DNA of 64,000 nucleotides from Marsupella aquatica (lineage: Eukaryota > Plantae > Marchantiophyta): positions 11,067,874-11,131,873 of the forward strand of contig OZ316894.1 in the NCBI GenBank assembly GCA_973895155.1, read 5' to 3'. The stretch's first letter is position 1, and each line of letters opens with the position of its first letter. The notes under the pieces were generated by a model, which was not told the DNA's origin, searched no databases, and saw nothing but the letters and a program-made list of their open reading frames with translations. Below, piece by piece: positions 1 to 53,287 of this stretch. Position numbers and translations under genes: made by a program.

Positions 1-59
1 GAGAGGTATGGGAGAGAGTTCAAGACCCTGATGATCCATTACAGTTTCTCCGATGTGGC

Positions 60-4374: not shown

Positions 4375-4389
4375 TGCACCCCCCCTTAA
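4375..4389 (-). other. Polypurine tract of the chromovirus
   Basis: Minus strand TTAAGGGGGGGTGCA directly precedes the 3' LTR. Confidence 0.85.
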
Positions 4390-4813
4390 AAATGGTCACG
4401 TCCGCGTGACCTAAGTAAACGTTCCAACACGCCTAGACCACTTTGGGCCTTAAAAAATTTTATGAGGTAACAAATGGTTTGCCCATAAGGCTGATGCAAA
4501 CCAGGTTGGTATGCGCATTCCAAACTTAGGAAATTCCAACCTATCCCACTTATCCAAGTAGGATGCCAGTCCAAACGGGTAAGCTAACTCCAAACTTGTC
4601 GGACCCCTTGTCCTCCCCTTGGGGCACTCCCCTTTGGTTCGAACTAGCCCGCCCACAGATGTAGGGCGGGCACCATCAACTTCCACTCGCAAAAAGCAAA
4701 TCAGCCGCCCAACAACCTCTAGCCCCAACGCAATCCGACTTTATCCTTGAGAGGCCGAGAGGAGTGAAACTAGGATACAACTCACAAAGGTAGCTACAGT
4801 TGTATGTACCAGT

Positions 4814-10064: not shown

Positions 10065-10076
10065 GCTCTGATACCA
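10065..10076 (-). other. Primer binding site, tRNA-iMet
   Basis: GCTCTGATACCA = reverse complement of TGGTATCAGAGC, 2 nt from the LTR. Confidence 0.92.
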
Positions 10077-10078
10077 CA

Positions 10079-11017: not shown

Positions 11018-11337
11018 ATCTGTCTAATAACAGAGCACGAGTTGGCTCTATAATTACAATAGATTTTATCCAATCTAGCTTGGTCAAAACGTGAACCACT
11101 AATAGCTTGGCATGTAAACTTGGGTCCTTTTCTAATCGCAGCACACATGTACGAATGAACAAAATCTCCTTGATCAATGAATTTAGCCCACTTCCTGCAT
11201 TTGCTTCCATGTAAGAGTGGACTAGGTCCAATAGAGTCGTCAGGTTGTTTGACCATATTGAAATCTCCACCAATCACCCAATTGCCCACAGCGGGTTTGT
11301 TGCCCAGCCACCCCCACAAAAGCTTCCTCTAATATCT
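11018..11337 (-). pseudogene. LINE ORF2 fragment 2: APE endonuclease middle
   Basis: WVIGGDFNMV ... ARLDKIY motifs. Confidence 0.87.
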
Positions 11338-12234
11338 CACTAGTAGAAACCGGGGGGTATTTAGACCCCATTAAACGACTATTCAATACCGTATAGGACT
11401 TGGAAACGACTGGGAAGGACTCTAGTCCTTTATAGGACTGCGAGTCGTATGTTTTGTTACTATAATCAACTGAGTCCTTTATAGAACTGGTTTATAAGTC
11501 GTTTAATAGACTGGATTTTCAGTCTATTTTAGTCTTTGTGTGGGTAGCTTTGGTGAGTCTTTTTCAGTCTTTTATGGGCTGCGATGGTGAGTCGTTGGGA
11601 ACAACTCAAAAGGTTATGGAGGGTAGTCTTTAAATATACTTTGTGGGTTTATAAAATGACTAAAGTAGACACTTTGTGGGGGTTTATAAAACGACTAAAG
11701 TAGACACTTTGTGGGGTATGTACAAGTCTTTCATGTCAACTGGAAATGAGTGATGAAGACCCCACTATACTACTTGGAATGAATTCACTCTTGTGCACAA
11801 ATAACACATTTCATTCATGTTTTATTGTGTACTTGGAATGAACTCACTCTATAAGGTCACCATTCACCATGTTAACATTAGAACCTCACACAAATTTTCA
11901 GAAATCTTCTATACCATGTACACTAATATGAATTCACAGATTCAAACATCATAGACTACAAAGAAGGTCACAAAGCATTCGTCTATACCATACACACTAA
12001 TACTGAATTGATACAAAACAGATTCAAGTATCATAGACAATCACCATAGAGCCATAGTTTGACATCAATCACTTGTTTCATACATACAGAATTCAGAAAT
12101 ATCAATGTCACACACAACGGCTCCTTCATCCTCTTTACCAAATGGAAAAATTGGTACAGATATTTCTTGGATTTTTCCAAGGCAATGTCAAAATGTAACA
12201 CAATTCACATGATTCTATCTACACTTGTATTCAG

Positions 12235-15200
12235 TCACTGCAGACTAACACACTCTAATGGCCAGAGCACAAGAGATCCTACTGCATCTGCAATTATTTC
12301 TTGAGGTGGATCATCGTCTCTATTCGGAAATGGCAAATTACAATCAGATACAATCACTGTAGTCAACAACACTACTACATGGTCATCCGGGACCACTTTG
12401 CCATGGAATTTAGCATGATCCGGTCGCAAAATGCCTGTACCCACACATACCTGCGAGTCATTCTCCCATGATAGAAGATTATGGACTGGCTCTGCTGTGG
12501 CTATCACCTCCACCTTACCCTGGCTGTTTTTCTTGGCTTTCCTGGGTGGCTTATACATGACATTATTCATACCTTGGTTGCGAGTCATGACTTTGGCACG
12601 AGTGTTTTGTGCTGGTGATCGAGAATTGGCTACACTCTTCTTCAAAGAATCTGCATCCATATTTGACACTTCCGATTGTGTAGCAGGATTTCCCTGCGAC
12701 ATCATCTCAGTATCTGCTAACATTGTACTTGCTTCAATTGAAGCATCTACAATCTTACTTGCATCCAATGTTGCTCCCAAGTTTCGACGTCGCTTCACCC
12801 TGCTCCCACTTGGTTGAGAGTCTGTCAACTCTGCATCAACTACAATTCAATGCATTGTCCAACATAAGTGAATCACTCATCACATGTGCGCCATGTACAT
12901 GTCACCATCCACAAAGTTGTCACTATCTCCTTACCATTATGAACAGCCTTCTTCCCCTTCTTTGCCATTGCCATATCCTCCATGTCTGCTTCTGCTGATC
13001 AATAAACAGACCACAAGATTCAGGTTCAATCTATTAACCACTGAATTGTTTCTCAACAATGGTAGGAGAGGAATTTAAAGCATCAGCTTACCTGATACCT
13101 CCTTGGCTATGGTCACTGAGGCACTGGGCACATCTTTTTCATTGCTCTTTGAATCACCTGATACATCAATCATGATGTCACTTCAATTCCCAGTTTATCC
13201 AACCAATTCTTACAGAAAAGATTACCTCCAACCGGCTTAAGCTTCACAAAACTCCATGCACTTTTCAAATGTAATGTACTGGATCATAGCAGGTTACCTG
13301 TCTCAGCAACCTTTTTGCCATTCTGCTTACCGATTACAGGGTCCAGGTTCTCTGCCTCCACTCTTCCTGCATTCAAACCATTCACTCAATTCATGAAAAC
13401 TTACTTCTAACATTTGAACATAGGACACAATGAACAATGGGCCTCTCTTGTTTCAAAATCCTCATTGCATACCTGTGTCAGATTTGCCAATTCCCTTTTT
13501 TGTTAACAAGGGCACACTTTGTACAATGTTGCCCTCATTGTTTGGTTGGGAACCACCCAATTTTTCAATCACAAGCTTGAAATTAGATTCCACTGATGCA
13601 AGAAGGTTCGCTACAGATGCCTCCACAATATCCAAACGATCAGCCAATTTACTTTCCACTCGAGGGAGTCCACACTCTAATGACTTCAACCGTTCAGACA
13701 TCTTTGTGAGAGTTGTAACAGTTCCCTGTCATAACACAGTTTACATATCTCAGATAATTGTCCCCAAGAACTGGTTGCTTACTTCCTACTACAATTCTTT
13801 CTGATGCTCAAGGCCAAATAGTCACAGAACATATAGAATTACAACATAATCACCTGTTTGGAAGTCACACTTGTCACCTCACTCCTTTGTTTCATGAACT
13901 CCTCTCTCACTTCTTGTGCTGATGGTTCTTCACCTGTCAATTTCTTCTGCAGTCCACATCAACATACATATGAATGAAACCAAGTGTTGATTGTCAATGA
14001 AAATGTAATAATGGTAGCAAGATGATAAGTTTGAGGCTTACTATTAGGCATGTCACTGCCTTACCAATTGTTCTTTCACTGGAGCATAACTTCCTCTCCC
14101 AGCCTGTGAAAGGTGTTTCACTTTGCCTCGAGCATTTGACATCAGTTCACTCTTGCTCTGTCCAGCCTCCGACATGAACCCTTTGATTAACCGTGTCCAT
14201 TGATCCAGTTCCAATGATGGGGGTGGTGGCATTCTCCTGTTAGAACCATTGTCTATCCACATCCTTTTCAACCTATGCCTCTCTTGTTTCAAAATCCTCA
14301 TTGCATAATCTGATATGCAATCTTCAACTGGGCCCTTACCATCATTACCAACATAGTCCCACCGTTCAAGAATGTCCTTGCAGATAGCAGCCCAATCAGC
14401 TTTGTTCTGACTCCTAAACTCTGTAATGCTCAAATCTAACCAACGCAATACTTCTCCTCTTAGGTCAGAATGCCAACGGTTCTTACCATCACATGTGGGA
14501 GTTATCCAACCTTCGGAATTCACTTCTACTTTACCAAATTTGTTACTGTCTCCTGCCTTGGTACTCCCTGAAGCGCTACTAGGTGTCCCTCCACGGCCTG
14601 GTGTCCCCCCACGGCCTGGGGTCCCTCCACGGCCTGATCTCCCCCCACGGCCTGGATTGCATTGTCCAAACCTCCCTGGAGTCCCTGCACATTTACAGGA
14701 TCCATTTACAGTCACTTACATTAGGTAAGTATGAATCATAAATCCTGCTGCCAAATATACACTGGACTTCAGAGCAATTCTGCAATGACCAAGTTACCTC
14801 TCCCTTGGCGCATAGATGGTTCTGGACCACCTGTCCTATTGCTTTGTCTTGATGAATTAGGGCCGTTTCTCCCGCCTGTGAATGATTGCCGCCTATCTGA
14901 ACGTGGATGGCCTTTGTTGTTTTCGTGATTGTCCCAATCAGAGTCTGCATACCAACAGGTACATGCCACACTCATGGACCTGTAAGATAAACTCTTTGCC
15001 CTAGCTACACATCAGATAAGTCCATATTGAGCTAAATCTCTACTACCATCACAAAATCACTAGCACAAGGCACTTACTTGTCCAATCATCCTCCTCACCT
15101 GTCCATTGCCCTCTGTACCCGTCTCTACCACGCTCTGGGTGTTCATATTCATCCCATCCATCTTCTGCTCCATCATAGTCATCATCATAATTATCAGGCG

Positions 15201-15420
15201 TCCCTTGCCAATAACTCTGGCTCCTTCTAGGGTATGGATTATGTGATTTCTCTCTAGCTGCCCACCTACCTGGGACTTGATGAGGGCCCTGTGCATCCTG
15301 CACAGGTGCATTTTTCTGTGAGCCCCCTGCATCTGGGTCTCCATCCATATCCAATCTTTCCTCTTCACCCCACTCTCCAAGCCCCATGTCTGTCTCCATG
15401 TCATCACCCTCTTCCCCCAT
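12235..15420 (-). CDS. CACTA ORF2/TnpA-like multi-exon gene (exon boundaries approximate)
   Basis: Exon-like ORFs 15049-15420 (acidic), 14053-14715 (ERHRLKRMW...PPP...QWTRLIK...NARGK, Ptta/En/Spm-like), 13462-13701 (coiled-coil-like) and 12235-12828 (VGTG...FHGKVVPDDHVVV...VLWP). Confidence 0.7.
14582..14655 (-). repeat. 18-bp coding tandem repeat, about 4 copies (GGTPGR)
   Basis: TGTCCC(T/C)CCACGGCCTGG repeated within a TnpA-like exon. Confidence 0.85.
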
Positions 15421-15597
15421 AGCTTCTGCACAGCACCCACAACCAAACAGGGAGAATCAGCACACTAAATTCAAAGTATCAATCAATTTCATGCATATCC
15501 AACTATCCTAAACATCATTCCAGGCAGCAATTCCCGTTCTGTGACTCTGTGCAGGTAGTCATCCTCAACCTCATACTTGCCAATCGCCAGCTGTTGC

Positions 15598-18500
15598 CTA
15601 TTGCAAATCATCAACCTCATCATATTCCATTTGCCCAGGTTCATCATATGTCTCTCTCAATGTTAAGGGGATGTAGTCAGTCCCTGCCCGAGTTGGAAGT
15701 ACAGTCTCATGACTAGGATGCTCGAATGCAGCATGGTCATCCAAACTGAACTCTACTTTACTTCCATCCATCCGCCTGTTCCGTGCTTGGCTATGGCATA
15801 CCACCCTCCAGCCATGTGACTCCTCCACATCTGCAAAGAAAGCCTGTTCAACTTGGCTAGGGAAAACAAAAGGCTCAGACCATTCTGGTACTCTGGACCT
15901 AAAATTGGCCAACAAGAACCCATCATGATCACGCTTCATGGTGGCCCTTGGTCTCTGCCACTCTGATTTCACCCATGATCCCTTCATCAATATCACTGGG
16001 ACACTTGTGTTACCATAATTCAACACCCAAATGTCGGTCAACTCCCCCACGTAACCCATCTTCATCCACCCCCTCTGTTCTTCAGAGGTTCTCTGCTCAA
16101 ACACAGAAATCAAACCACAATCATATGATACACAATGGTCACCCTGCTCATCCCTCACTCGATAATGATTTCCATAAGCTCTCATCCGTTTGTAGGTCAG
16201 AATAGACAATCGTGGTGGCACAGATAGAAGATACAAATCCTTCTCCATATCTGGGTGATGTCTACTATGCTCTCGAATTGTCACCCGAATCCACTGCTCG
16301 AACTGTGGGAAGGGATCCTGCTGCCCAGAGTGTGCAGCTTTTTGCATATCATATTCCCTGCAATATGAGGTACAGGCATAGTTAGGTCTAAACAACACAT
16401 GACAACCTAAGATCACCCTTGGAACAGACAAGAAGCATCACAACAAAGGCAAGTCAATTCAATCACTCACCTCCACCATGGTTGCATAGGCTCTGTGTTT
16501 GCCAGCACATATGAATGAGCCTTGTCTCGAATCGCAACAGGCAGCTGAACAGCACGTCCCACACCTTCAACAACCTCGCCACTCACTCCATCATCTTCAC
16601 CAGATTTCCAAACTCTTGTCATAGCTTCACCAGACCCAGCCATGTACTCTGTTAGGAATCCCAACGTCTCATCCTTAATGTACCCCAATGCCATGGAAGC
16701 CTCTGGCCTGTAGTATGTTCTCACATGACCTTTCAACAACTTCATGTATCGCTCCATAGGGTACATCCATCTGGTACTGACTGGCCCATACTGCCCTAGC
16801 TCTTCTACCACATGGATTAGGAGATGAGTCATAACATCAAAGAAAGCAGGGGGGAAGTATATCTCCAAGTCACAGAGGACATAAGCAGCATCCTGCTTCA
16901 ACTGCTCCAATCCTTGGGGATCCCACACTTTCACACATATACGGCGAAATACATTGCACAGTCGAAGAATGACATTACGGACTGGTTTCTGCATGAGACC
17001 TCTGAGGCATAGGGGCAGAATGTGCTGCATCAACACATGGTAGTCATGTGTTTTCATACTGCCAAGTTTATTCTTTGTAATATGCTTCTTGAAGGCACCA
17101 GCATAGCCAGAGGGCACTTTCAGACAGCTCAATCTATACAAGAATGTCTTCCATTCATCCTGTGTGCACACATAGGGAGCTTGGAACTTGAGAAGTACAT
17201 TGGGATTGCTTGCATGGGGCTTCAACCAAAGGTGAGGGCGAATCCCCTTCTGTTGCATATCAGCTCGAACTGCTCCTGTATCTTTCTCACCCGACAAGAA
17301 CTTCAGCAAGCTCTCACAAATATTTTTCTCAATGTGCATGACGTCCACATTGTGTTTGCTGGGCTCGAATTCCTGCACTCCACAAAGCAAAGAATTCAAC
17401 AACAGAAACACTAATTAACCACATAGGAGGATTGTAACCAACATCAATCCACCATTGCTCCAATCTAAAATTGCAATCATACAGGGGCTGGAGGCTAAGT
17501 ACATTACCCTCCAGTACTCCAACTCCAAGTCCATCAAGGTCTGTCTTTTCACACCGTGTTTCACCACTGGATCCTCAGGTTCTCGATCAGTGGCACTTCT
17601 CTTGTCCCAATCAGCCTTCCTGGCTGCCCACCTCAGGACTTGCTCTCTGGTGACCCTCTGTGGTGGGCCACGAAGCTCTGTTTTGTTGTTGAAGTGTGCA
17701 ATTTGAGACCGTGTGTGCCTGTAAGGATGATCAACAGGCAGATACCTTCTATGCCCCTGAAATTTCATACTGTGCAGGGCATGCGACCACTCACTTGTCA
17801 CATTTTTCCCACATGGTGTGCACCCCACATAGCCCTTTGTCACTCGTCCAGATATGATGCCATGGCCTGGGTAATCTGCTATATCCAGCAAACAAATTGC
17901 ATGCAGTCTAAAGGGGCTGGGTCGAAGAAGCCCCTTCAGAACATCATGGGTTAACACCCCTTCTATCCACAAAGTCTTCCACTCTTCCATTGCTGGAGCC
18001 AACATGATATCTATGAATTGCTCGGTCACAGAAGCTGGTCCAGGGATTAACAGCACCATCATGACAAAAAACCTCTTTGTAGTCATCCATGGGGGAAGGT
18101 TGTAATTTAGCAGCGTAACCGGCCAACATGAATAACGGTTGTTTTTGTCTCCAAATGGGTTTACTCCATCCAGTGATAGACCAAATCGAAAGTTCCGCTT
18201 CTCTGCAGCAAACTGTGGCCACCTCTCATCAATAAATTTCCAATGGTTGGAATCTCCAATGTGACGCTGCAGGCCATCACTGCTCTTGTTATCAGGAGTC
18301 CATGTCATCAGCTTGGAAATGGCAGGGCATCTAAACAGACGTTGTAGTCTAGGAATGAGAGGAAAATGACGAAGAACCTTGGCAGGGTGTGTACATTTCC
18401 CTACATTCTTGTACCTGTGCTTACCACAATGAGGGCATGTCAATTTATCTGCATGCTCTTTGCAAAAGAGAACACACCCATCAGGGCATGCGTCAATAGA

Positions 18501-19298
18501 CACATAGTTCAGCCCAAGGTTAGACATCAATTTCCTAGCCTCGTACATATTTTTTGGAATTGAATTACCATCTGGTAACACATTTCGGCGCAGGAAGGTC
18601 AACAACTCTGTCACAAATATATTGGGAACATTGTGATTGCCACAGATGTTCAACAACAACACGACAAAACCCAGCTTGGAGCAGTTCGACCCCTCGTAGA
18701 TAGGAATGCAAGCTTCTTTGATGTGTTTTGGGCCCCCAAACACCCACTCCCTCTCTGCTGCACCTTCCCCAATGTCAAAGTCAGGTTCAGCTTGGCCGTC
18801 GCCAATGTGTGGCTGCGGTTCATTGTCCTCTTCTGATTCCACTGTGTCGTAAAAAGCATCAAGGTCTTCAAAAATCTCTTGAACCATTCTTGGGACATCC
18901 ATCCCACCGTCCTCAGTGACTGCCTCTGCATCTCCATCTTGGTCATCCACGTTCTCATGTTGGACCCCAGGACCATCCTCTACACAGTCTATGTCCTGCT
19001 CTACGTAGTCTCTACGCCTAGCTGTATTAGAATCCACAAAGTCAGCTCTCCACTCTTCATCAGAGGAGTCTTCTTCTGCTGGTACATTCCAAACCCTCCA
19101 CCGAGGGTGCCTTTCATGCCGCAGCAGGTGAAGGTGCACAGTGTTCAAACTCAATGACTTGAATCCTTGGCACTGTGTGCATGGGCATCTCATCCTCCTA
19201 CTCCTACCTTGGGCGGCCCGGGCTTGTTCACGCATCCACAATTTAGAATCATGATGCCTAATCCTAAATGGGTTGTGAAGAGGCAACCTTGGAGCCAT
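15598..19298 (-). CDS. CACTA transposase TnpD (three long exons, apparently uninterrupted)
   Basis: CPCTQC N-terminal domain; IDACPDGC; GLSLDGVNPF; DIADYPG; DVMHIEKN; WMYPMERY; EPFVFPSQVEQAFF; short GT..AG gaps near 17.4-17.5 kb and 16.4 kb. Confidence 0.92.
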
Positions 19299-19624
19299 CA
19301 CTATACACACGCACTCAGCACCCTGTCATTTTATTATGCAAGTGAAAAATACACTTCCTGTTAAGGATTTCACCCCTGACTGTACTTGCCAAAATACGTA
19401 ACGTTCCAAAAAAACAAAAAAACAAAAAATATAGGTGCCTGAGTCATGTACCTATTCTCAAGTGAATGAGACAAAATTCCTAAATGTTTGAGGATGTCAA
19501 CTCCTCCGCTGTCCTCACATGTACTGCCTCTGCACGTACATCCATGACCATATCAGAGTCCAATCATGTATAGTCATAGACACAGGTGCCAGGTGCGAGA
19601 CCGGTGTGAGATGTCCTCATCTTA

Positions 19625-20194
19625 CTACCACATCAAATACGGATACCAATCTTGTTGTCGATGCCACTCAGCCCTGAGGTACTCAAGCATGTACATTAAG
19701 TCATCAAGGTCTAAACCCTGCTCATGCCATGGTGGTCTTCGATCCGTGCCTACAAGCAGTGGCAGCAGTGCCCTCCATGGTGCACATGTTGCTACCAAGT
19801 CCCTCCACTGGGTACTAATTAGTCTATATTTGCAGATATCTTGTGCGCCAGACACCACAAGAACCCTCGGCCAGACATGTGTAAGAACTATATCATCTGC
19901 CAAATCAGGCAACAAGGAACCACCTACAGCATCGTGCTTGTCTAACTCATCTGCTGAAAAGTAAATGTCCTCTTCCGACTGTGCATCCTCATTCACCACA
20001 GCATTCACAACACATCCAAGGTCTGCAGGCATTATCTTGGATGGAGCTACACTCTGTCTGGTTACCAATCCACACAAGTAAGCCCAAGCAGTAGCCATGC
20101 ACGATGCAACCCGTAGGAGGACCCTACACAGGGCCTGACGGTCTGGAAGAGGCAGCATACCCACCAAAGTCTTCAGCCAAACAGAGCCCAGCAA
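19625..20194 (-). CDS. F-box-like protein (CACTA cargo)
   Basis: SLLPDLADDIVLTHVWPRV...YRLISTQWRDLV fits the F-box pattern LPxLxxDI...L.RVSxxW; start codon uncertain. Confidence 0.55.
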   Translation of the reverse strand: MLGSVWLKTLVGMLPLPDRQALCRVLLRVASCMATAWAYLCGLVTRQSVAPSKIMPADLGCVVNAVVNEDAQSEEDIYFSADELDKHDAVGGSLLPDLADDIVLTHVWPRVLVVSGAQDICKYRLISTQWRDLVATCAPWRALLPLLVGTDRRPPWHEQGLDLDDLMYMLEYLRAEWHRQQDWYPYLMW

Positions 20195-20334
20195 GTAGAT
20201 TCACAGTCACACCCCACGCAGCAGGAAACAACAATCACTTCAACTGCGACCAACCATGACAAGATGAGTTAGTTCAAGGATCACATTTATTACAAAATTG
20301 TGATTTATACAAAAATATGAGGGACTCCTACTCC

Positions 20335-21183
20335 TCACTCTCTCCCACCTTTGCTAAGCATACATCTCCGCTGAATCTTGGAGGGCCAGGCCTCAAAAAT
20401 ATCAAAGTCCCAAGCATTCTGTCGCTTCCCTCTAGCTGCTGATTCCAGAAGCCAATCAGGGGAAAGCACCCAAAGATTGTTGTTCATGACAAAATCACGC
20501 ACTGTTGTCTTAAAGAATTTTCTGCATATTTTCATGTATGACAGACCTACAACATGAGTGGAGGTTTCTGTTAGACTCTCCTCCACTGTCCCACCTAGCT
20601 CAACAACTATAGACTTGTACAGTCTGCACTTAGTCTCCCCAATTCCTTCTTCTGCAAATACCACACTGAACCCCTTCATAATGGTATTTCTCTCCTTGCC
20701 ATGCTCATTCAATATAGCATCTGCACGCATAGGATGGTGTCCTATGTTGACAACAGGTCCATATTGGACAGAAGCAAAGTTGGGTTTCTCTGCCGCTGCT
20801 TCATAGGCTTCCTTTTCAGCCAAAGCCTCTGCAGTGGCCTCCTCACTCTCCCACAACTCATATTGCTCAGTACTCTGTACACACCTATGCTTAACAGAAT
20901 CGGTCAGCCAAGAGACTTCAACTACTTTTAGACCTTGGTTGGTAATGGCAGAATCAATGAAGGACCATGACCACTTGTTCATCACATCCAGCCATGTCCC
21001 CGCAACAACATGTGTAGTCTGTGGAGTGATGTCCTTGACTTCAGTCCCATGGAACTCTGAGAATCGTTTTTGTACGATTGGCCAACTCACTTGGGTGAAC
21101 CCATAGTGGCCAGGAATCAAAATGGCTTTGATTCCAGCCAACAGAGGCGGGTGGTCAACATTTGTACGTTTCCTAGAGGCCAT
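20335..21183 (-). CDS. Tandem BRCT-domain protein (CACTA cargo)
   Basis: Two repeats with BRCT hallmarks: HG...TTHVV...VEVSWLTDSV and LGG...STHVV...LSPDWLLESA; basic N-terminus MASRKR. Confidence 0.8.
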   Translation of the reverse strand: MASRKRTNVDHPPLLAGIKAILIPGHYGFTQVSWPIVQKRFSEFHGTEVKDITPQTTHVVAGTWLDVMNKWSWSFIDSAITNQGLKVVEVSWLTDSVKHRCVQSTEQYELWESEEATAEALAEKEAYEAAAEKPNFASVQYGPVVNIGHHPMRADAILNEHGKERNTIMKGFSVVFAEEGIGETKCRLYKSIVVELGGTVEESLTETSTHVVGLSYMKICRKFFKTTVRDFVMNNNLWVLSPDWLLESAARGKRQNAWDFDIFEAWPSKIQRRCMLSKGGRE

Positions 21184-21783
21184 GTACACACGGGCCACCT
21201 AATCACTGCAGACCGGAAGATAATGCGTTCACCTGATAATCGGAGGGCCCTTAAAATGCTGCGTTTATAACTTGGTCCAGTCCAGTCGTCTGGTGAGTCT
21301 CTGCTCCGATTCCAAACGGGAGAAATATTGGGACAAACGTACTAGACACCTGCAAGCATGCACTTCATAGTTTGAATATGTGCCTTCACAATATTGAAGG
21401 TGACAAGTGCAATTGTTTTGTGATGCCACATACAGATGTTTCGTATGGGGGCAGACATTCAATGAGAATACAAAATGTTGGTACACTTTAAGGGAATTCT
21501 CGCAAATTAAATAGCCTTGTAACTTATATGCTCATAATGAGAAGTCCTGATTTAATTTAAGCAGTGTCATGTAAGTCGTGATCAAAATGATTGCAGAGTT
21601 AAAAAAGTTCCTAGAAGGCTTAAGGGGAGATTTTGAAGGCATGTACCCAGGAACAAGTAATGAACTTAGGGTACTTGTTGCCTAAGCATCCTCTCCTACA
21701 GAGGTCCTTCTTCTCAAAATTGGAATGTCTGCAATCTCCAAGGTATCCACATCAGGTGCACTATGCATGTACATTATTCAGGT

Positions 21784-22464
21784 TCAAAGCCAAGAAATGT
21801 GATCTCTCATGGGAGTGTGCAAAGTAGGATCTATGGCATGGCGATGACAATAGAAGATCCATCGATCAACACCATGTGCAGAGTGATCATAGATGTGTCT
21901 GTCACAAGCATAGCCTTCTGCTTGACGCTCCTTCAAACAATGAAAGTGCCACATGGTGGGACACCTAACACAGTGGACTATGTCCACCCAGAAATCTTCA
22001 TCGTGCTGACCACATGCCTTGCACTTATGAAGTGGGCAAGCTGTGGCAAGATCGGGCAAACATGAAAAACAAAAGAACCTCACACAATATCTGTCAGGGC
22101 ATTTCCTAACAAGTGGTGGAGCATCAACAGAGCCCTCATAAGACCCCAACTTCCCACACTGTGCACACTTAGCCTGCTTCTCCAAACAATCAGTGCACAT
22201 CCAGCCTCCTTGGTGTGCTGACGGGAGGCCCACCCCTGGACAGTTGTTTTCTGCAGCAAGGTCAGACTCCGGGTTGAGGTGGAAATGCCTCATGCAAGGG
22301 CCCTCACATATGGCTAAGTCACCACCATCATCACAAATGGCACAACAATGAGCTGCCTTCTGGAAAATCTGACTTGCGGAGAAGTTACTACCATCTGGCC
22401 CAACTACACCTGTGTTGCTCACCTCTGTCCCCCGCTTCTTGGCTCGGATTTTAGGGCGTGCCAT
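21784..22464 (-). CDS. EDM2/NSD-type multiple PHD-finger protein (CACTA cargo)
   Basis: CAICDDGGDLAICEGPCMRHFH...CTDC...CAQCGKLGS...CPLHKCKAC...CVRCPTMWHFHCL...IFYCHRHAIDPTLHTPMRDHI is collinear with the plant EDM2 PHD region as recalled. Confidence 0.85.
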   Translation of the reverse strand: MARPKIRAKKRGTEVSNTGVVGPDGSNFSASQIFQKAAHCCAICDDGGDLAICEGPCMRHFHLNPESDLAAENNCPGVGLPSAHQGGWMCTDCLEKQAKCAQCGKLGSYEGSVDAPPLVRKCPDRYCVRFFCFSCLPDLATACPLHKCKACGQHDEDFWVDIVHCVRCPTMWHFHCLKERQAEGYACDRHIYDHSAHGVDRWIFYCHRHAIDPTLHTPMRDHISWL

Positions 22465-23133
22465 GCCTACGCATGAGACAGATAGTACAATTTAGCAGAG
22501 TGCACAGACAATACAATTTAGTGCAGTGTACAAAAAGTACAGTATAGCATATAGACTAGAGTGGCAATTGCTACTGCAATGAAATGTTCACACACATGTG
22601 CAGAGTAGACATACTTTTTGGTTTGTTGAGCCCACACTAAAAACTGATCCCCTCGTACAATAGCTCCACCTACACCTCAATTTTGTGGCTATGATTCACC
22701 AAAGGAGATCTGCAACAAGATTTAATGCATTTGAATCACATATAACAGTCGTGACATGTAAAACAGGCATTTTTTGAACAGGATTGGTATCAAGCAGTGT
22801 GATCAGGGTTGTAATTTATACATCCTAAATAGGCTATGATAGTGAATGAGACAAATAAGTTAGGCATAAATCACTTTTTCCAGGTTATCACATGGCCCAT
22901 TAATTCCAGTCTTTGAAAGGAGACTTTTAAGTGAGCTTGCTAGCCTCTTAAATTAGGATATTGTACTTAGTGCAGCCATAATAGGATAAGTTATGTACTG
23001 TTGACCCTAAACCCTGGACCCAAAATTGGTCATAATTCAAAATCTTAAGTAAATATCCTCTCTGTTCAAGTCAAAGTGTTAAGTTATAGGTCAATGGTCT
23101 CTGGTTTGTGCATGCGGTGTGACAAGTGGTCCT

Positions 23134-23583
23134 CTAGAGCGTGTGATCCAAACATGTGTAGACACCAAAGTGACCGGTGGTGGGGTCTGGGAGGGCAGGA
23201 CAAGTGACATTGCCAGGCACACTGCAGGATGGCGAGTGGTTCCAGATGATACATTGTGCTCTGTGAAAAAACCGACATCCAAGAGAACGGTCATCCAACT
23301 CTAGGCCAGAAGCCCTACAGGCAGGACAGTCATATTGGCAACTGTGCACACACCCTTGGGCCCTAATTTGTGGCGGGTCATGTACAAGAGACAGAAATAC
23401 CAAGGATGTTGGGAAGGGTGGAGAAGCAGGTACAGGCCGACTGTAGTTGTTCCTGGCAACAACTGGGTACTCAAAGTACCATGCAGACTGGGCTGGAAGG
23501 ATCCCAAGTCTGACATACTCAAGGCGCAACATCTCTGCCTTGCGTGCAAGCCGCACATGTTCAGCGTTGCGGGTCCTCACCAT
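23134..23583 (-). CDS. Hypothetical Cys/His-rich protein (possible CACTA cargo)
   Basis: 149-aa ORF on the same strand as the other cargo ORFs, with CVHSC, CPAC and other Cys residues; no family recognised. Confidence 0.35.
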   Translation of the reverse strand: MVRTRNAEHVRLARKAEMLRLEYVRLGILPAQSAWYFEYPVVARNNYSRPVPASPPFPTSLVFLSLVHDPPQIRAQGCVHSCQYDCPACRASGLELDDRSLGCRFFHRAQCIIWNHSPSCSVPGNVTCPALPDPTTGHFGVYTCLDHTL

Positions 23584-26500
23584 AAGTGTTGCTTTTGTGG
23601 AGATGTCGTGTGTTCACGTCCTCTGATAAGCACCTTCGATCAGCAAGGTGAGCAGGAGCTGTACTTGCCTCACCAACAGCAACCAACCTTAAATTATCAG
23701 TTCCCACTCACTGTGTCATTCCATTGGTTCCAGCTAGGGGTCACAGTGTAAACATAGCATGAAACACTCCTAATCAACTTGCTTACAAACTACAATATCC
23801 AGAAAGAGTGAAAGTCTCACCCTCCAGTGAGCAGCAGAGAGGTAGTTCACTAGATGTGTTGATGTGCAGTTAAACCTCCACTATTGCTTACTTCTGGTGT
23901 ATGCTGCTCAGAAGAAGACATATTAGTAGCAGCAAATTGCAAATAATGGCCATAAGCAAACCGTGAGAGTTTGCAGAATGCTACGACAAATCCATCACAG
24001 CAGTGCTCCACAGGAATGAAACCAAGCAAAATTTGGTGACCTCGGCCAATGACAAGGCCAATGTAGTGAACAATCCTTGACCGATCAGGATATGGATTGG
24101 AATTACAATTAGTCAGCTCTTCTTCTTTGTTTTCTAACTCTGGGGGAAATGAGCATGACCAGGGAATTCTCTGAGAAATAGAAGTGCACAGGGAAAATGA
24201 AATTGGCTCATTCAGCTCTGCAAGATGGACCATTGCAGCATACTTGGACAGTTGTTCCGCAATACATAAAATACCCTGACTTACATGCAATTGATACAAT
24301 CTGCTTCTGTTGGCTGTCCTACAGCTCATGGCAGTGCCGTTGGGACAGGGTAAGTGAATATTGCCATAGCTGAAGCACATTGAGCTTGCAGCAACAAGTG
24401 AAGGAGCATGGCCAAAAGCAGAAAAGACAGACAGGTTTTACAAGAAGAAACTAACAACCGCCAATCTGCTCAAATCCGCTGCATAGATCAAACCCTCCGA
24501 ACTACACAGCCCTCCTTTGAAAACAATCCAATGTGCTTTGGCTGGTGGATGACAAGGACTGGGAGAAGAGGAAACGTCTGCACAATCAATCCAAATGACG
24601 GTACACAGAGACCAGGCACAGAGAGGATTTGTGCTTAGACAAAAACCACAAATTGTAGCATGGGCGCCATAGCATTCTAGACAAAGCACAAAACATAGAA
24701 TCTATGAATCTATGACTCATGGACTAACAAAATGATTGGGTAGCATGGCAAAAGGAAAGACAAATTTCAAAATGACAACATGGCCCATTTCCACCATTCA
24801 TTTGACGTTGCTAGGTGTCCGTAAGATGACTGACCCACAAACAATCCCGACAACCTCATCCGACAGACTGCTTTTCTAGTGTGAAGAAATACATGATTAC
24901 AAGCAACACCACGCCTCATCCAAGCAGGGAATTGAAAACATAACCATGTCATTCCTATATTGGACAGTGTCCTCTGCCATTGCACTGCATAGTTGTTATT
25001 CCATGTTGGTTGTCAACAGTTTGTTGGCTTGCCACAACCTAGATAGAACAATAAAATATTGTACATGAATACAACAAGAAAAATCTGCATACAGCGATGG
25101 CCCGGTCACTTGAGGAAAAAACAAAACTAAGAAGGCAGGCACACGGGCAACCGAGAAAAAAAGCTAGTGGCGCCTCGCGGAGAATCCAGAATGGTAATGC
25201 CCTCGCCCAGAAGCTTGGGAAACAAAAGAGAAAAAAGCAAAAACGAGCTACCGACCACCGTCTTGACCAGGCCTGCCACAAGGTATGGCTGGAGGCTGTG
25301 GTCCCCCCCTCAGTAAAGAAAAGGATGCAGGTTGGAGCACGGGGCACAAGGCATGTTTGGATCCAGGAGGAGCAAAACAGTAATGTCAAGCAGGAAGTGT
25401 GGAGAGACCAATCAGTAAACAAAAATAGGGGAGAACAAACATACATCAGCAGCAACAGGAAACGAGAAAGTTGATTTAGGAGGGATTGTAGGGAGAGAGC
25501 TTTTGGTGGGCTCGGCTGTGCGTGAAATATCGGGAGATAGATGCGCGAGAGAGTGAGGAGGGTGGCAAGCGGAAGACGGGTTGGGACTGGACCCTTGGTG
25601 CCGGTGGGTAATATATGGGGTTTCAGCAGACTTGGGGCCAGTTTGAGGAGGATTGAGAAGCGCGCACCCCACGTTCTTGGGTGGTGGTTGGGTGGGGTTT
25701 TGTTTGATTGAAGAAGAAATCACCATTCTCTTCTAGAAGAAAGAAAATCACAGGAAATAGTGGACGGGAGAACAAGGCATGTAATAGAGAAAAACAAGGC
25801 ATGTAATAGAGACAGTGCGCAGCTCAGCTCCGAGGTCACACTTTACGATGCACAGGGGGTCCTTGGTTGCACGTAGGAGAAGGACTGAATCACTGTGGCT
25901 GCTCTTCTCTACTATCGAAGCACCCGGCTGGCAGCTCCGCAAACACTGATCGTAGCTACAATCTCTACACCGTTGATTGAAGAGCAGCTGCAGCACAGTA
26001 AGGAGCTCCCACAGCCTCCCTCTTCAAAGCTCGGTTGACCTAGCTCTACGATCGACGGAGCATGGGCGCCAGACAAAGCACAAACTGTACCATGGAGCTG
26101 GAGAAAAACACAGAGTAATTGAAGCCTAACAATACCCTTCTCAGCTCCTGATTGAATGAGGAAAAACACATTACAAGACACATTGCAGGCAATAGGATTT
26201 TAACAATGAAGTCTCACCTGTGCTGACAGAATACCTGCTTACAGCCACGCGTTGCTCATCCTCCCACAGTTCGGTGGCACACTATCCAGATGGCATGACG
26301 CATGCCTTAACTTATGACGATTTGCGCAGCTCAAATCAAGTAGGTTGTCCCCACAAAAAGACAGAGGACAACAAAGAAAAGCAATGTAGCCGTGATGTCT
26401 TACCAGCCCTGACAATGGGAGCTTCAAAGGCGGTGCACTATGGCTGAAATGGCAGCACGCTGCTCGAACACTAAAGCAACACAAAACTTGGACTCTCACC

Positions 26501-26899
26501 TTATGCAACTCCTGGCTTGTATTCAGCTGGCGTTGGCCCACTCTAAGCTCCTGCGCCGCTCCGACTGCCAGTCGTTCTGTAGACGGTCTGTATCCTCCCT
26601 GACTGCAGCTCCTCCCCGCCCCCAGCTCGTCACCCGCGTCTTCTCCCCAATTTGTGGTGAGCTCCTCCTCGACCACAGCACCCTAAACTGCTTTGCCCAG
26701 CCTCTGATGGCCTTCACGTTGTTACCGATTGTCGCTCCCCACAAAGTCCACAATCCATAAACCAGGCAGATAGTGCGCCCGTAGAACAGATGCAACCCGC
26801 ATGCAGCTTCACCAGCTCAATGGCAGCTCAACAGCTTAAGGGTGCAGCAAAAGGGCGTTGAATAGGTTGTCTCACCTCACCCTTCGAGAGCCGGTCATT

Positions 26900-27150
26900 G
26901 CAGCATCCCTAAACTCCCGATCCCTCTTCTCGGATTCCACAGAGCCGACCACAAGAAAATGGGAACACTAAACCTCACTGTAGAGACGTTCCCACCAAGA
27001 TTACACGGAAAACCTTGCTCCGATCCCTAAGCTCCCAATCCCATCGAGAGAACACGATAAAACCTTGCTCCAATCCCTAAACTCCCGATCCCACCAAGAG
27101 AACACAATAAACCTTGCTCCGCAAGTTGGGAATGTGGCGGGATCCCTAAA
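26900..27150. repeat. About 50-bp imperfect tandem repeat in the CACTA 5' region
   Basis: Recurrent AAAACCTTGCTCC...ATCCCTAA(A/G)CTCCC(G/A)ATCCC units. Confidence 0.7.
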
Positions 27151-28389
27151 CACATCAACAACCTGCTAAGTGTAAGCAAAGTTGCATAACCGGCTTGTTC
27201 CCTTCCAACGGTCGCGCGACTCGGGTGTCCAAACGGTACTGCAAGCGGTACAGGCCCCTAGCTTGGGATACCCTTACCAAAGTCACTGGTGTTGCCGACA
27301 TGGTAACGGCAAGATTATCCTGACCCTCCATAAACCCCCTCCATTCACTCAAGTGTTGTGAGTGACAACTTAGTGTAGTGTCGCTAAACAAATACTTTGG
27401 CCTTAGCAAATATCTGTGGTGATCGAACTTCATTAAACCAAACCTCTTTTGGTCACAAATAAGGCCATTTAATGAGTGATGCCCCTTGTCATCACCCTCT
27501 TAATTTATGCAATTACCCCTCCTGAACACAATTGAACATTGTCCAAATTGCCTACCCTCATGAATAATTTGTCAATTATCTTTCCCGACATATATGATGT
27601 CAATGGACATGATGGGGAACATGATGTCAATGGACATGATGCCAACGATCCAATGGTTCCTAAACCCCCATCCCCTTAACATGCAACCCCCGACCCTTGA
27701 CATCAAACCCCCCTAAACCCCCTTTAGTGAAAACCCAGCCACCCCCTAGCCTTGACATATAAACCCCCTAAACGTCTTCACAACTCGACTGTGGCCAGAC
27801 TATCTTTGCAATGCCAAGGGCCATTTTTAGAGTGCATGCCGCTTGCAAGCTCAGGCTCTCAAGATCCTCCCAAGGCAGCAAACAAGTTAGGGTCCCTAAA
27901 CATGTTCCTTTACCCTAAACCATTGCGTCACTATTTCAATCGAGTGTTCTTTGCCTGGACAACCCCCTAACCCTAAACCCACACCCCCTTGAGACCGGTA
28001 CAAATCTACCTTTGTGCATCTTGGCCTTTTATTGATGGAGTTAGTAATCGATCCCTCCGTAGTCCACCCTCCATGAACCTCACTCCAAAACCTTTTTTGT
28101 CACAAATAAGGCCATTTATTGAGTTATGCCCCTTGCTATCTCCCTCTTTACAGAATTACCCCTCCTCAACATAAGTGAACATTACCCATGATGTGCTAGA
28201 CTATTCACCGTTCACAAAGTAGCAAGGTTACTTCTCATAGTCTTTTAGTGAACCATAAAACACTAATAGTCTTTTGTAGTCTTCAACAAAACTGGTGCAA
28301 TGGGTGCGAGTCGTTTCAAGTATGGAAAAAGGACTTAGTGGGCTTAGTCCTATAAGGTATGGTCTAAATTGCCCCGGTTTCTACTAGTG

Positions 28390-28764
28390 TCTGTTGCTTG
28401 GGCCATTGGGTGCATAAATGGATCCAATGTTGAGAGGCCCCTTGTTGGATTCAATAGTGATCCAAGCACAGGTTCTGTCACCCTTGCTACCCTTGCTAAT
28501 CACTTTGATCGAGCTTGGAGTGACCACCGCAGCTCCAACTCTTCCATCAGCTCCATAGTCTACAACAAAGTTTCCCCCTGGCAATAAATTAGACAACATG
28601 AAGTCACATTTATTCACTTTGACCTTGCATTCTTGAAGACAGAGTACGTGTATGTCAGGTTGAGCTCTTTTAATCCAATTCCCAAGAATTCTGGATCTGT
28701 TGGGATCGCCCAGACGATTAACGTTCCATGATCCGATCTTGATGTCATCAATCATCAAGCACAA
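28390..28764 (-). pseudogene. LINE ORF2 fragment 1: APE endonuclease N-terminus
   Basis: IGSWNVNRL, VLCLQECK, SIYAPN; joins in frame to fragment 2 (SNRY*RKLLWGW) after removing the CACTA and one TSD. Confidence 0.9.
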
Positions 28765-31145
28765 TTGTTGAGTGGCTTAACCTTTGCTGTGGGTTTTCTC
28801 ATAGTGGCTTTGACTCCAAGTTTGGTGATGATTTCTCCCTTGAGTCGTTCCTTGAAAGCACGTGGTGCTTTGTGAACATTTGGATCAAGCTTCTGTAACG
28901 TTGGGTCATTGACTGGTTCGGGTAAGAGTACAGGCGAAAGCAGCTTGTCAGGGATAGGGGATTCCACAGTGCTTGATTCCTGTGGTTCCACTCTAGCAAA
29001 ACCAGGCCGGTAATCTTCCATCAGTATCCTGATGCTAGAGTCTCCTTGCATAGTGTTGCCTGTCGAATCTGGAGGGTCAAGATCAAGGTCTTTCATGCTG
29101 GCGCTTCTGTCAGAGTGGGGAGAATGATGTTCTTCTTCATCCATCTGCATGGGGGATCCATCCGGGAGATCCGCTCCAGTTGCAGTCTTGATTTTCTTGT
29201 GAGGTCCGTGTGCGGGTGTGGTTGACCCAGGATCATTGAGAGCAACTGCTGTAGTGTTTGCTGGTGCTGCAAGTGCCTTTCGAGTGTTTTTGATGGAGGT
29301 TTGTTTTGCTGCTTCAACAGTTGATGCTGTCAGTTAGCTATCCATGGCTTGCTTGTGGTGTTTGATTGGTGTGAGTACAACGGTGCCCTGGGTGGGATTG
29401 ATGTCTCTCTGTTTCTGATTCTTCGTGGGTGTTCTGACGTCCATGTTGGTCAGTTTGCTTGGATGTGGCTTTGTTGGCGTCTTAGACTGATTCTCAGTAT
29501 CATTTATAGTATCTGTTGCTTCCTCCAGTGCTTCGAATGGGTTGCTTGTGGTTGCAGGTTGTATAATGCAAATAGTGTTAGCCCTGTCTCCCTTGTGCCC
29601 CTGTGCTTTACTCTTTACTGTCACGAATCCAGTGTCATCTCCTGTCATATCTCCAGCCAGGTTGGTCTTCGTGACGACTTGATCAGGAGACAGTTGTAGT
29701 TCAGCTTCAGGGTTCCTGTCAGCTGTTGTTGTTTTCTTCTTTGTGGGGCAGTATCTAGCCTGGTGTCCTTGTTTCCTGCATACAAAGCAAGCGTCTGGCA
29801 TTGATCTGTACTCAACTGCTATTTTAAAATCTCTAATCCCTGGTAAGCTAAAGATTATATATTCAATAAGATCTTGATTCAAATCAATCAGCACACATCC
29901 ACGTATGTGTGGAAATCTGCTCCGGGAACTAGTGGTGGCAGCATAAACTACTATGCCGACAGAGGCCAGCAGTTCGTTGGCATAAATCTCTAATGACGGA
30001 TGTACCATAGGCAGATCAATCCAGACGGGAGCCAGTGATCTCTACATTGACTGGGCGTCAAAATCAGCAGCCCATGGCATAGCCATAACGAGCTTGTTCC
30101 CCATGTGGAATGGTACCTCTGCTAGAATTTGATTTTGTTCTTCATGAGTTGAGACGACAAGTAAGAAAGTACAGCGCGCAATCACCTTTACTTGCTCAAC
30201 TCTGATGTTCATATTCTGTACTAGCACATCGTCTACCCAAGCTTCAAAATGATCTCTCGAGGGATTGAAATCAACAGTGTAGATTATAATACCCCTATCT
30301 TGGAGATGCAAGACTCTGCTTTTGATGGTCGTGGGGTTCCCTTCAAATCGCACGGCACGCATTCCGGGTGCAAGAGCTTCTGGTGGATCAGGTAGATGAT
30401 TGAGAGCCGCAATGAGTTCTCCATCGGAAATCATTTCTCCTGCCTTGATATCAAAGTTTCCATCTTCGTATGGATTAGCTGTAGCTTCAATTGATGGTGG
30501 GTTGCGTGTTGTGGGGTCATTTCTGCGAGCAATGTGGTTGTAAGTTTTGCCAGTAGCCGCGATTGCAACATACGATTTATCTGTGTGGCTTCTTCCTTGT
30601 TGGTGTTGCTGTTTGCTGTTCCTTGGTTCAGGCTGATTTAGCTGCGCTTGGAGCCATTCTCCGGATTGCCTGTGGGCGGTGAGAGCGTTGTGGTGGCTTT
30701 GCTGCTTAGTCTCGTCAATCTCCATTGCTTTTCCGGGGTGCTCCGTTTCCTCCATCTCGGTGCTCGATTTTTGCCCTAAATTGCTTTGTCGTGAATCTTT
30801 GATCTGCTGTTCAGAACAGAGGGCATCAGCGTCGTGGTTGAATACTGGAAGCAAATCGCATTGCTTTTTGTATACAATTTTAGCTTCCAGGTGTTGCCGG
30901 CCAGTTGCTTCAGATCCAATGGTCTGTTGCTTTTCTGCTTTTTCCATCTCAATGTCCATTGCCCTGCTGCAGCTTGGGAAGCGACGCTGATGCACTGCTG
31001 CCTCCGACTCACTCTGTTCTTTTCTGATGTGCGATCTATCATACCAATCTTGGTGTACTTCATCGTTCCACTGGTCATTATCGTATGCAGGTCCTGAGTC
31101 AACGAGAGTCTTTGGAGCTTTTTTGTTTGTGCTTGATTTTGCCAT
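28755..31145 (-). pseudogene. LINE (L1-type) ORF1 with zinc knuckle, disrupted
   Basis: PFHMGNKLVMAMPW, PVWIDLP, RGCVLIDL, CFVCRKQGHQARYC, SNPFEAL, typical of plant L1 ORF1; directly upstream of ORF2. Confidence 0.85.
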
Positions 31146-32561
31146 TTTGCGAGCTGCTTAGGTCGTTGATCAGTGTGAAGAGAAACTTGATAGGGCCACT
31201 GCTTGGCCTGCGTTTGATTTTTGTCTCTTTGTGTCTACGTTCCTGTTAGCAGTGTGCGTCTCAGTCGATCTGGCCATGACTACCATAGCCCGCAAGCTCC
31301 AATGCTGTGCCCATTCAGTTTTCCCTCAAGCACCTAATGTCTCATCCTAGCCATTCTTATGTGGGAACTGGCCACACTTCACTTTACATGAACTTGGGGG
31401 CACAATCAAACAAAAGCATTACCCAACCTAGTCATCTGTCAGTGAGCCCCTTGTGGGTCCCTTTTTTGCTGATGTGTGCAAGCTTTTTTGTCAAAAACTT
31501 AGACCTAGTCTTGAGGACTTGAGGTGGTCTAAAACCTGGAGCAAACGGCAGCTTAATTATTTGCAGAGAATTGCATTGATTACTTCCAAACCTGACACAT
31601 TTTGGCTCCGGCATTTTAATTTTTGTATAAGGAAATAGCCATCGGCTTTGCTTTGGATGGAGAGACACTGAACAGCCTCCACGTCTTGTAAAGTGCCCCT
31701 AAGGATAGCAGTCTGAGTAACGGGTGTGCGGCTAGGTGGGATGTAAAACTACAGTAGCCAATCTATGACAAAAATAGACTTGTCGAGAGGTAAAATTTAG
31801 CTAATTTATGCCAATATTAAAGAAGCTTCTTTACAGTACCAGGCTAATTTTAAAGTTTTTTTTGCCGGGTTTGCCAATGCCACCTTGTGTGAAGGAGAAC
31901 ATGCTGAGAATATCTTTTAGGTAATTTTATTCAAGGCTTCTTTCTGACTGTTGTATCCTGGCTATTGGAGAGAAAGCATTGTATCTAATGCAAGCAAAGA
32001 GTCTATAATTTTTGCCAAAAGTGGCAAGCCTCTTTTTTGTCTTGAACTTAAATGAGAAAGAACACTTATTAGTCTCTCCCACCCAAATAGTGACATACTC
32101 TCATTGTAGGGCAGGCTACGGACATACGCAAGAGGGGGATGCCTGGGAACGGGTAGTGTGTATGTACACACAAATTTGGCCCTAAACTAACCCAAAAACA
32201 ACAAATTTGGCCATTTTCAAAACCAAAAGACATAAGCTAGACACCTTGCTGGACTCCCAAGAAGAAAAGTGATAGCCACCAACAGGAACAAACACCTAAA
32301 ACATGTGAGAACAAACCCCTAAAATACTAAGTGGTTCCCCAAGGAATGACACAAACTTTGATTCATCCGCACCACGGATGAATGTGTGACCATCAACATG
32401 TTGTCTCGTTCAATCTAGATCATATCCCAACAGAAAGCCCTTGCACTAATCTATTTGCTAAGCCCATCACATCCAAGTTTCATGAGAAAAATCTCCAAAT
32501 AACTACCAACACTTAACACTAGAAAAATGTCACAATCTCCTAGGAATGCTCATATACCAAT

Positions 32562-33242
32562 CTTTGAGCAAAGATGGCATTCACCTTGACAAGCCCATGA
32601 TCATCCAATGCAGAACTAGTCGACCTAGAGAGGTATGTGGTTCACCTTGGCTAATGTTGAGCAAAGACGACATTCACAACGGCTTGCCCATAGTCATCCA
32701 ATGATGAAGTAGTCAACATAGAGAGATGTATGTGGTTCACCTTCTCATGAGGCTATGTCCAACAGAACACACAAGAGCTTTACTACACGATAGGGCGACC
32801 AACCATACTGAACATCCACAACACAAGCTCTCCTTATCTCTCAATTGGCCCCGTAGCAATGAGCCTGAGTTCCTCCTAACCAAGGAAACACCGCTTGGGA
32901 TATAGAGTGTGCAAAGCATGACTAACCTAGTCTGTGACTAAGGTTAGCCCAAGTAACTATGGTAAAGTCGTAACTCATAGCTAAGGCCACATTTCTGGGA
33001 ACACATGAGAGCTTTCCTGCACTCTAGGCCAGCCGGCCATACCGGGTCTCCACAACACAAGTTCTCCCTATCTTTCAACTGGCGCGGTAACAATGAGCCT
33101 GAGTTCCCCCTATCCAAGCAAACATCATTTTCATTGGATATAGTGTGCAACCTAGTTAGCCTAACCTACTCTGCAACTAAGATCACCCCTAACTATGCAT
33201 GGTTACAATCATAACCCTAGACCTAAAAGTAAATGTCTAATA
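32562..33242 (-). mobile_element. Degenerate copia-type LTR with adjacent PBS-like site, interrupted by a second LTR
   Basis: Similar to the LTRs at 40335 and 63488; GCTCATATACCA (32548-32559) resembles an iMet PBS with 2 mismatches. Confidence 0.7.
32655..32979 (-). mobile_element. Solo LTR nested inside a related LTR
   Basis: TGTTGAGC...CTCATA flanked by the 5-bp TSD GCTAA (32650-32654 / 32980-32984). Confidence 0.78.
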
Positions 33243-53254: not shown

Positions 53255-53287
53255 CCAATCGGTTGATTATTGATAGTGGTGAGTTGA

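Follow-up and report, generated by a model that had tools for sequence, protein, structure and literature searches.

The window, as we term the whole 64,000-nucleotide stretch of Marsupella aquatica DNA analyzed here, harbors a CACTA/EnSpm element of 17,052 bp (11338-28389), all the genes of which lie on the minus strand. The element is delimited by a perfect pair of 18-bp terminal inverted repeats (TIRs), located at its 5' end (28372-28389, starting with CACTA) and its 3' end (11338-11355) and bordered by the two copies of a 3-bp target site duplication (TSD; 28390-28392 and 11335-11337, respectively). Among 30 CACTA-like end pairs, only this one combines a long TIR with a TSD. The target was an L1 element, the 5' part of which lies at 28390-31157 (minus strand) and continues at 10987-11334, with PF03372 halves on both sides; a single L1 endonuclease ORF was thus split by the CACTA, and the ends of the latter are confirmed by the fact that the two halves rejoin in a continuous reading frame. 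The TnpD transposase (15598-19298) is encoded by three exons (19298-17508, 17372-16471 and 16357-15598) and yields an open frame of 1150 aa once two GT-AG introns are taken out, with Transposase_21 (4e-59), DUF4218 and DUF4216 domains. Short TIRs starting with CACTA, a 3-bp TSD and TnpD domains are all hallmarks of the superfamily, and the element is an intact, autonomous CACTA transposon, in agreement with the TIR- and TSD-bounded CACTA of a preliminary description of this DNA. Candidate TnpA-like exons are present at 12235-14715 (14053-14715, 13462-13728 and 12235-12846, minus strand), with a PF03004 match (E 0.014) that falls under the cut-off.

Four minus-strand ORFs lie in a row between the 5' end and TnpD: a Cys-rich ORF of 149 aa (23134-23583) that matches no family, an EDM2-type triple-PHD accessory ORF of 226 aa (21784-22464), a tandem-BRCT ORF of 282 aa (20335-21183; PF00533, 6e-14, in two stretches) and a 177-aa ORF (19625-20158) with a weak, F-box-like resemblance (PF00646, E 0.1 only). 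Such a set is not expected by chance: five ATG-initiated ORFs of at least 149 aa are seen against 0.07 expected, and two such ORFs on the minus strand of 19301-28389 reach 226 aa or more, a length for which 200 shuffles gave a mean count of 0.0. The preliminary description had missed the three neighbors of the PHD ORF. The tandem-BRCT ORF has a single unnamed cluster of full-length homologs, at 61% identity, and hence appears to be a conserved accessory gene; it has no sequence match in the PDB. It might be argued from this arrangement and from the conservation of the BRCT ORF that the PHD, tandem-BRCT and F-box-like products form a joint substrate-adaptor module that engages repair or ubiquitin pathways where excision has left breaks, and not silencing. 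The F-box likeness is weak, the co-occurrence of these ORFs is established for the present element, and we regard that proposal as quite improbable. A complex prediction of the PHD and BRCT products, run without alignments, scored 0.00 and constitutes no evidence either way.

Architecture of the PHD ORF

The plus strand of 21784-22464 is interrupted by stops, and the ORF is read on the minus strand from 22464 to 21784, unbroken from ATG to TGA, in line with the intact ORF described previously. The basic N-terminus noticed at the time can be traced to six Lys/Arg residues within the first 11 aa (22432-22464), starting with M-A-R-x-K. The multi-PHD module has likewise held up: Pfam returns three NSD-type PHD models (PF23011, 3e-5; PF22908, 6e-3; PF23004, 1e-5), all of them scoring under their curated cut-offs, and all 24 zinc-ligand positions are filled. 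PHD1 (C41-C93; 22186-22344) presents the long His-to-Cys spacer of EDM2 and carries Q35 and H39 in place of an acidic flank, PHD2 (C100-H146; 22027-22167) has its fifth ligand changed from His to Cys (C132), and the variant PHD3 (C148-H209), together with the C-terminal motif of the EDM2 family that follows it, spans 21790-22023. The four signatures quoted earlier as matching EDM2 are all found in the 226 residues.

The description of the ORF as intronless and stand-alone is correct for its coding part, but a 5' leader intron is possible, since a candidate 3' splice acceptor (yAG, 22467-22469, minus strand) lies just 2 nt upstream of the ATG, and a yAG occupies the same position ahead of the TnpD start codon. 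None of the four best donors upstream joins an ATG-bearing frame, which makes a leader intron likelier than a fusion to additional coding sequence. No splice-type skips were seen among the 15 contig joints listed (106 more were not), a count that has no bearing on expression.

The fold model of the PHD ORF is of moderate quality only (pLDDT 62, pTM 0.64, with PHD1 poorly predicted), an earlier model built from six alignment rows having been poor (pLDDT 51). The predicted fold resembles H3-binding tandem PHDs, with the PHDvC5HCH of NSD2 as its best match (Z 5.2, rmsd 2.6, 75 aligned residues). Among the PDB matches there is no solved structure that would define the specificity of the EDM2 PHDs.

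A conserved family of cassette proteins

Among 94 candidates, five are full-length homologs of the PHD ORF (217-245 aa; 82, 75, 54, 40 and 36% identity). A profile search produced 549 matches, and 15 of the best 150, including the top five, were assigned by inspection to the cassette type; these 15 fall into as many separate clusters at 50% identity. Together with the query, four further homologs and three cluster members they make up the 23 cassette proteins considered here, 12 of which are partial or frame-shifted. Cassette proteins end where the module ends, and a clean start and stop are common to the family. The 12 cassette clusters that were looked up trace back to Logan, ENA or JGI entries, bear at most the label 'hypothetical' and in no case (0/12) come from an annotated genome; the CACTA context is established for the Marsupella copy. 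A metagenome scan found nine loci, none of the cassette type (eight plant EDM2-like and one PHD-repeat protein), and the pattern matches obtained in two scans of viral contigs (42 and 54) all proved unrelated.

Parts of the element are present in 11 of the 13 public runs listed. In four runs 6111, 14449, 734 and 205 contigs align to it, covering 30, 30, 30 and 29 of its 30 bins, respectively. A more distant organism contributes 31 contigs on the PHD ORF, all of them less than 95% alike and one at depth 4217, a figure that does not equate to copy number. Summed depth in run X6 is highest over TnpD and the PHD ORF; since genes cannot be ranked by depth and the two are not joined by any contig, this pattern is not proof of their linkage. 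Run X9 has no contigs on the PHD ORF, which is no proof of absence.

The pattern of substitution points to constraint on the protein. The zinc ligands are kept at 24/24 positions in four of the full-length homologs and at 22/24 in the fifth, as compared with 32-82% conservation at other sites (Fisher p from 0.012 to 4e-10). In a gap-free related contig of 227 bp, dN/dS is 0.30 (p=0.005; based on 28 of 30 differences), with no changes in 13 ligand codons. A 142-bp related piece at depth 2 shows a dN/dS of 0.83 (14 of 18 differences used) and carries a stop, and a third set of related DNA, with only five differences, is uninformative. This mixed pattern fits a selected gene within a family that contains dead copies. 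It also weighs on the idea of neutral Pack-CACTA cargo, or of a source of small RNA directed against a host gene. CACTA elements are known to capture gene pieces, as stated in the available part of PMC13317346, and one related piece has indeed decayed. However, ligand-specific conservation extends down to 36% identity, start and stop are shared across the family, and the closest host genes have merely 33-35% protein identity to the PHD ORF, which is too distant for small-RNA matching; both versions are therefore largely refuted and scarcely credible. By sequence comparison, the PHD ORF is a member of a conserved family and not the unique, neutrally decaying fragment that the preliminary description had named as its refutation, and it very probably represents a selected, element-borne chromatin protein. 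As an element-borne gene that is kept among related copies, with the CACTA linkage established for the present one, it is comparable to anti-silencing factors of the VANC and TnpA type.

Probable descent from the EDM2 family and departure from it

The best long matches of the PHD ORF, five among 3182 candidates, are Selaginella EDM2 and EDM2-like proteins, and the best named profile matches, among those listed, are a Calypogeia paralog (P0019, 145 bits) and Marchantia EDM2 (134 bits), a ranking that sets aside P0017, an unnamed protein with a duplicated module. The best named relatives hence belong to the EDM2 family, as the quoted signatures had suggested, with the liverwort proteins first. 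Human NSD2, also the best PDB sequence match (9e-11), scores 45 bits. The His-to-Cys spacer of PHD1 measures 11-12 residues in 18/20 cassette proteins, 8-13 in 108/120 other matches and 2 in 6/6 NSD-like proteins, and the EDM2 C-terminal motif is present in 11/23 cassette proteins (most of the others being truncated) and in 0/6 NSD-like ones. An Atlas placement assigns the PHD ORF to streptophyte NSD-type PHD clusters (0.93). Of the features of the NSD histone methyltransferases, the ORF lacks the SET and PWWP domains and the short PHD1 spacer.

In the phylogeny, the cassette proteins form a long-branched clade of their own, apart from short PHD-only host proteins, with support of 100/94 in a 57-row tree drawn from about 160 proteins and of 100/100 in a 36-row tree, from which 21 more long or redundant rows were dropped, including P0150, which had adjoined the cassette clade. 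The EDM2/ELP ingroup has 99/95 support in the 36-row tree, with animal NSD sequences lying outside the tree. The sister group is a clade of liverwort paralogs (96/88 under LG+G), but its support falls to 59/80 under a better mixture model. In AU tests, a position with the angiosperm EDM2 proteins is rejected (p=0.004), whereas positions with liverwort EDM2 (p=0.14) and with NSD-like proteins (p=0.25) are not. The comparison against EDM2/ELP and NSD proteins that had been recommended thus places EDM2-family proteins at the top of the named matches, but does not exclude an NSD-like position in the tree. On balance, we infer that the PHD ORF stems from an old capture of a liverwort-type EDM2 paralog. 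Judged from these nearest relatives alone, the host of the element would probably be an early, liverwort-like land plant.

EDM2-like paralogs ending after the PHD module constitute a liverwort clade (P0019, P0022, P0024, P0031, P0035 and P0063), and an M-A-R start is seen in several liverwort and Selaginella proteins of the EDM2 family. Short PHD-only EDM2-like proteins are also encountered in plants (L001 at 541-1662, L003-L007, P0037, P0045 and P0061), several of which start with M-A-R-x-K. The occurrence of such relatives in hosts, including the 280-aa Marchantia P0063 and the plant transcript loci L001 and L003-L007, would be compatible with the short proteins being mostly domesticated, host-serving genes, this copy having been picked up recently. 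That explanation seems very unlikely in view of the absence of any annotated genome among the sources of the 12 clusters, the many broken copies, the repeat-like depth on the ORF and the separate, long-branched position of the clade.

Resemblance to EDM2 is concentrated in the module. Arabidopsis EDM2, Selaginella P0007 and Marchantia P0021 share with the cassette an atypical module of three PHD fingers, the long PHD1 spacer and the C-terminal YCxxH..DH motif, and an alignment of nine proteins over the module has 33 invariant columns. Beside its PHDs, EDM2 has further parts, among them a methyltransferase-like domain and acidic domains, as outlined in the available part of PMC7529245. In contrast, the PHD ORF lacks the RFD, the acidic tracts and the methyltransferase-like (ELP) domain, that is, every non-PHD part of EDM2, and the protein stops at the module, as had been anticipated. 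Further differences from EDM2 are the Q..H motif in place of the acidic flank, the His-to-Cys swap in PHD2, the intron-free coding region and the location within a transposon. The liverwort paralogs (Calypogeia P0019 and P0035, Riccia P0022, Marchantia P0024, P0031 and P0063), the likely though weakly supported sister group under the mixture model, also stop after the module and in 3/6 cases start with M-A-R, but they are host genes of 280-770 aa that keep two to three acids before PHD1 and the His of PHD2. The PHD1-3 cassette of NSD1-3 is matched by the same three Pfam models; it differs in its short His-to-Cys spacer, the lack of the EDM2 C-terminal motif and a score some 90-100 bits lower, and the transposon cassette lacks the SET domain.

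The loss of the acidic flank is a property of the whole clade. The 8 aa before the first Cys of PHD1 contain no acidic residue in 20/20 scorable cassette proteins and at least one in 120/120 other scorable matches, not each of which is a verified EDM2-family protein, as well as in 6/6 liverwort paralogs. Within the cassette flank, Gln35 is invariant and His39 frequent. Similarly, PHD2 has Cys as its fifth ligand in 16/16 scorable cassette proteins and His in 117/118 other matches. Acidic residues ahead of the PHD1 of AIRE matter for H3 binding, and mutation of Asp297, Glu298, Asp304 or Glu307 costs in each case 5-8 units of binding free energy, according to the available part of PMC3471955. 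When aligned to AIRE PHD1, His39 and Cys40 take the places of Asp297 and Glu298, and the counterparts of Asp304 and Glu307 are Asp46 and Asp49; the acids of the PHD1 beta-strand are kept at position 54 in 14/14 proteins and at positions 46 and 49 in 11/14. From this mapping, the cassette has likely retained a portion of the H3 groove but altered its K4/K9 read-out.

The N-terminus follows M[AT]RxK in 10 of the 18 cassette proteins having an N-terminal part, residues 6-27 being mostly variable, and this start resembles the beginning of histone H3, although a plain nuclear signal could account for it. The basic M-A-R-x-K N-terminus is likely to serve as a nuclear signal, as an H3-tail look-alike or as both, and its A-R-x-K stretch may mimic the H3 tail.

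Judging from its lost acidic flank and missing effector domains, the PHD ORF is not a faithful EDM2 reader; with the defining domains of EDM2 absent, it is better regarded as EDM2-derived than as a member of EDM2. The proposal of a captured H3K9me reader operating through the ASI1-AIPP1-EDM2 complex is consequently unsupported as it was worded: the acidic flank is absent throughout, the nearest relatives are liverwort paralogs and the angiosperm position is rejected. The same observations bear on a possible read-through helper, in the sense of the EDM2 analogy drawn at the time, which would bring in ASI1/AIPP1 to keep transcripts from being polyadenylated prematurely; TnpD and TnpA, located 9-16 kb from the 5' end, would in this way be included in a long transcript. 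The AIPP1-binding part of EDM2 probably lies outside the PHDs, and neither the non-PHD parts nor the acidic flank are present here. Nonetheless, A-rich, polyadenylation-like words separate the tandem ORFs, both the PHD ORF and TnpD have a matching acceptor ahead of their start codon, and EDM2 acts in this manner at RPP7 and IBM1 (available part of PMC7529245); taken together, we consider this role unlikely.

Methylation footprint and putative anti-silencing role

The CACTA element presents a CpG observed/expected (o/e) ratio of 0.36 and a CWG o/e, dinucleotide-corrected and preferred over the raw CHG o/e, of 0.89, and is thus hardly depleted of CWG. Elsewhere in the window, CWG o/e is 0.67 in three LTR elements, 0.69 in another CACTA fragment and 1.02 in the L1. 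In 2-kb bins, 8/8 CACTA bins range from 0.78 to 0.96, against a median of 0.66 in the 22 outside bins, 3 of which reach at least 0.93, including a bin of the L1 target, which has no PHD gene; a control triplet revealed no difference between element and outside bins. The test was conducted post hoc on one element, the bins of which are for that reason not independent. With this qualification, the footprint suggests long-term CG methylation of the element with little CHG methylation. At the loci tested, EDM2 acts on H3K9me2 and CHG without affecting CG or CHH, and in Arabidopsis it raises H3K9me2/CHG at the DNA transposon Mu1 and lowers both at COPIA4, as reported in the available part of PMC3632883. 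Arabidopsis CACTA1 is mobile only when CG and non-CG methylation are both lost, in the account available from PMC10398659.

We favor a scenario in which the PHD ORF would be expressed from a spliced leader and its product imported into the nucleus, where it would behave as a small competitor that binds chromatin or host partners, acting as a dominant negative or decoy against host EDM2-family proteins, and thereby protecting the element against silencing through H3K9me2/CHG. We assign a probability of roughly 40% to such a competitor or decoy lowering H3K9me2/CHG silencing on the element. In more general terms, the cassette is likely to help its element evade one of the layers of silencing imposed by the host, and the CHG footprint lends indirect support to the decoy and anti-silencing roles mentioned in the preliminary description. 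Since the effect of EDM2 is reversed at COPIA4, a decoy need not activate, and the cause of the footprint could instead be TnpA, the neighboring ORFs or a different host mark. As a tentative extension, which we hold to be possible, a CACTA lineage of long standing in early land plants may have put a heterochromatin reader of its host to use against that host: an EDM2-derived, H3-mimic-tipped triple PHD, together with BRCT and F-box-like partners, would block the H3K9me2/CHG loop on the copies of the lineage, at the histone level and distinctly from the DNA-binding VANC and TnpA, leaving a CG-only footprint.

The retained fingers can also be read in terms of targeting, with the PHD module reading a histone state and tethering a TnpD/TnpA complex to preferred insertion sites, much as chromodomains tether chromoviruses to theirs. 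The intact fingers, the conserved beta-strand acids of PHD1 and the predicted likeness to H3-binding tandem PHDs would all be in keeping with this role, and a modulating effect on integration is ascribed to transposon accessory proteins in the available part of PMC13547354. Yet the module is encoded by a separate ORF and not fused to a transposase, its binding surface is putative and targeting leaves the CHG footprint unexplained, and we deem it rather doubtful.

PHD domains occur in other transposon groups. In the open-access literature, with subscription papers and Repbase lying outside the search, no description of a CACTA-encoded PHD or EDM2-like gene was found, and the term 'PHD' is absent from the main texts (supplements aside) of PMC13317346, PMC13547354 and bioRxiv 2026.08.24.746577. 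The plant transposon anti-silencing proteins VANC, TnpA and MURA are described, in the available sources, as acting on DNA methylation, VANC doing so through DNA motifs. VANC and KIU (VANC-Ulp1) of VANDAL elements and TnpA of Spm resemble the decoy envisaged here in being transposon-encoded anti-silencing accessories (available parts of PMC13317346, PMC10398659 and PMC13547354), and KIU also carries a captured host domain (available parts of PMC13317346 and PMC10398659). However, these proteins bind through DNA motifs and bring about a loss of DNA methylation, whereas the CACTA cassette is a module of the histone-reader type with a putative activity. Pack-CACTA elements and transduplicated fragments similarly hold host-derived sequence inside CACTA ends, but here the element is autonomous, the ORF intact and its conservation deep at the protein level. 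If the decoy scenario is true, a remodeled host histone-reader module on a transposon would amount to a second anti-silencing route, and the cassette to a natural separation-of-function version of EDM2.

Several other features were observed in the window. A Ty3/gypsy element with near-identical LTRs (51700-61389, plus strand) includes in its pol a frameshifted C-5 DNA methyltransferase (PF00145, 2e-9; 54688-57259), placed between the protease and the RT, and its integrase carries a PHD finger (PF00628, 7e-11; about 60245-60382) at the C-end; the terms 'PHD' and 'methyltransferase' are absent from the available part of a plant LTR survey (PMC6317226). The 3' part of another CACTA transposase, with DUF4216, lies at 1-1727 (plus strand), and the portion of this second CACTA within the window has no match to the PHD ORF. 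Finally, a chromodomain-bearing gypsy element spans 2881-11017, a copia element lies at 46190-51700 and two imperfect repeat families, with units of 120-135 bp and about 93 bp, occupy AT-rich sequence at 41266-42469 and 32564-33144, respectively.
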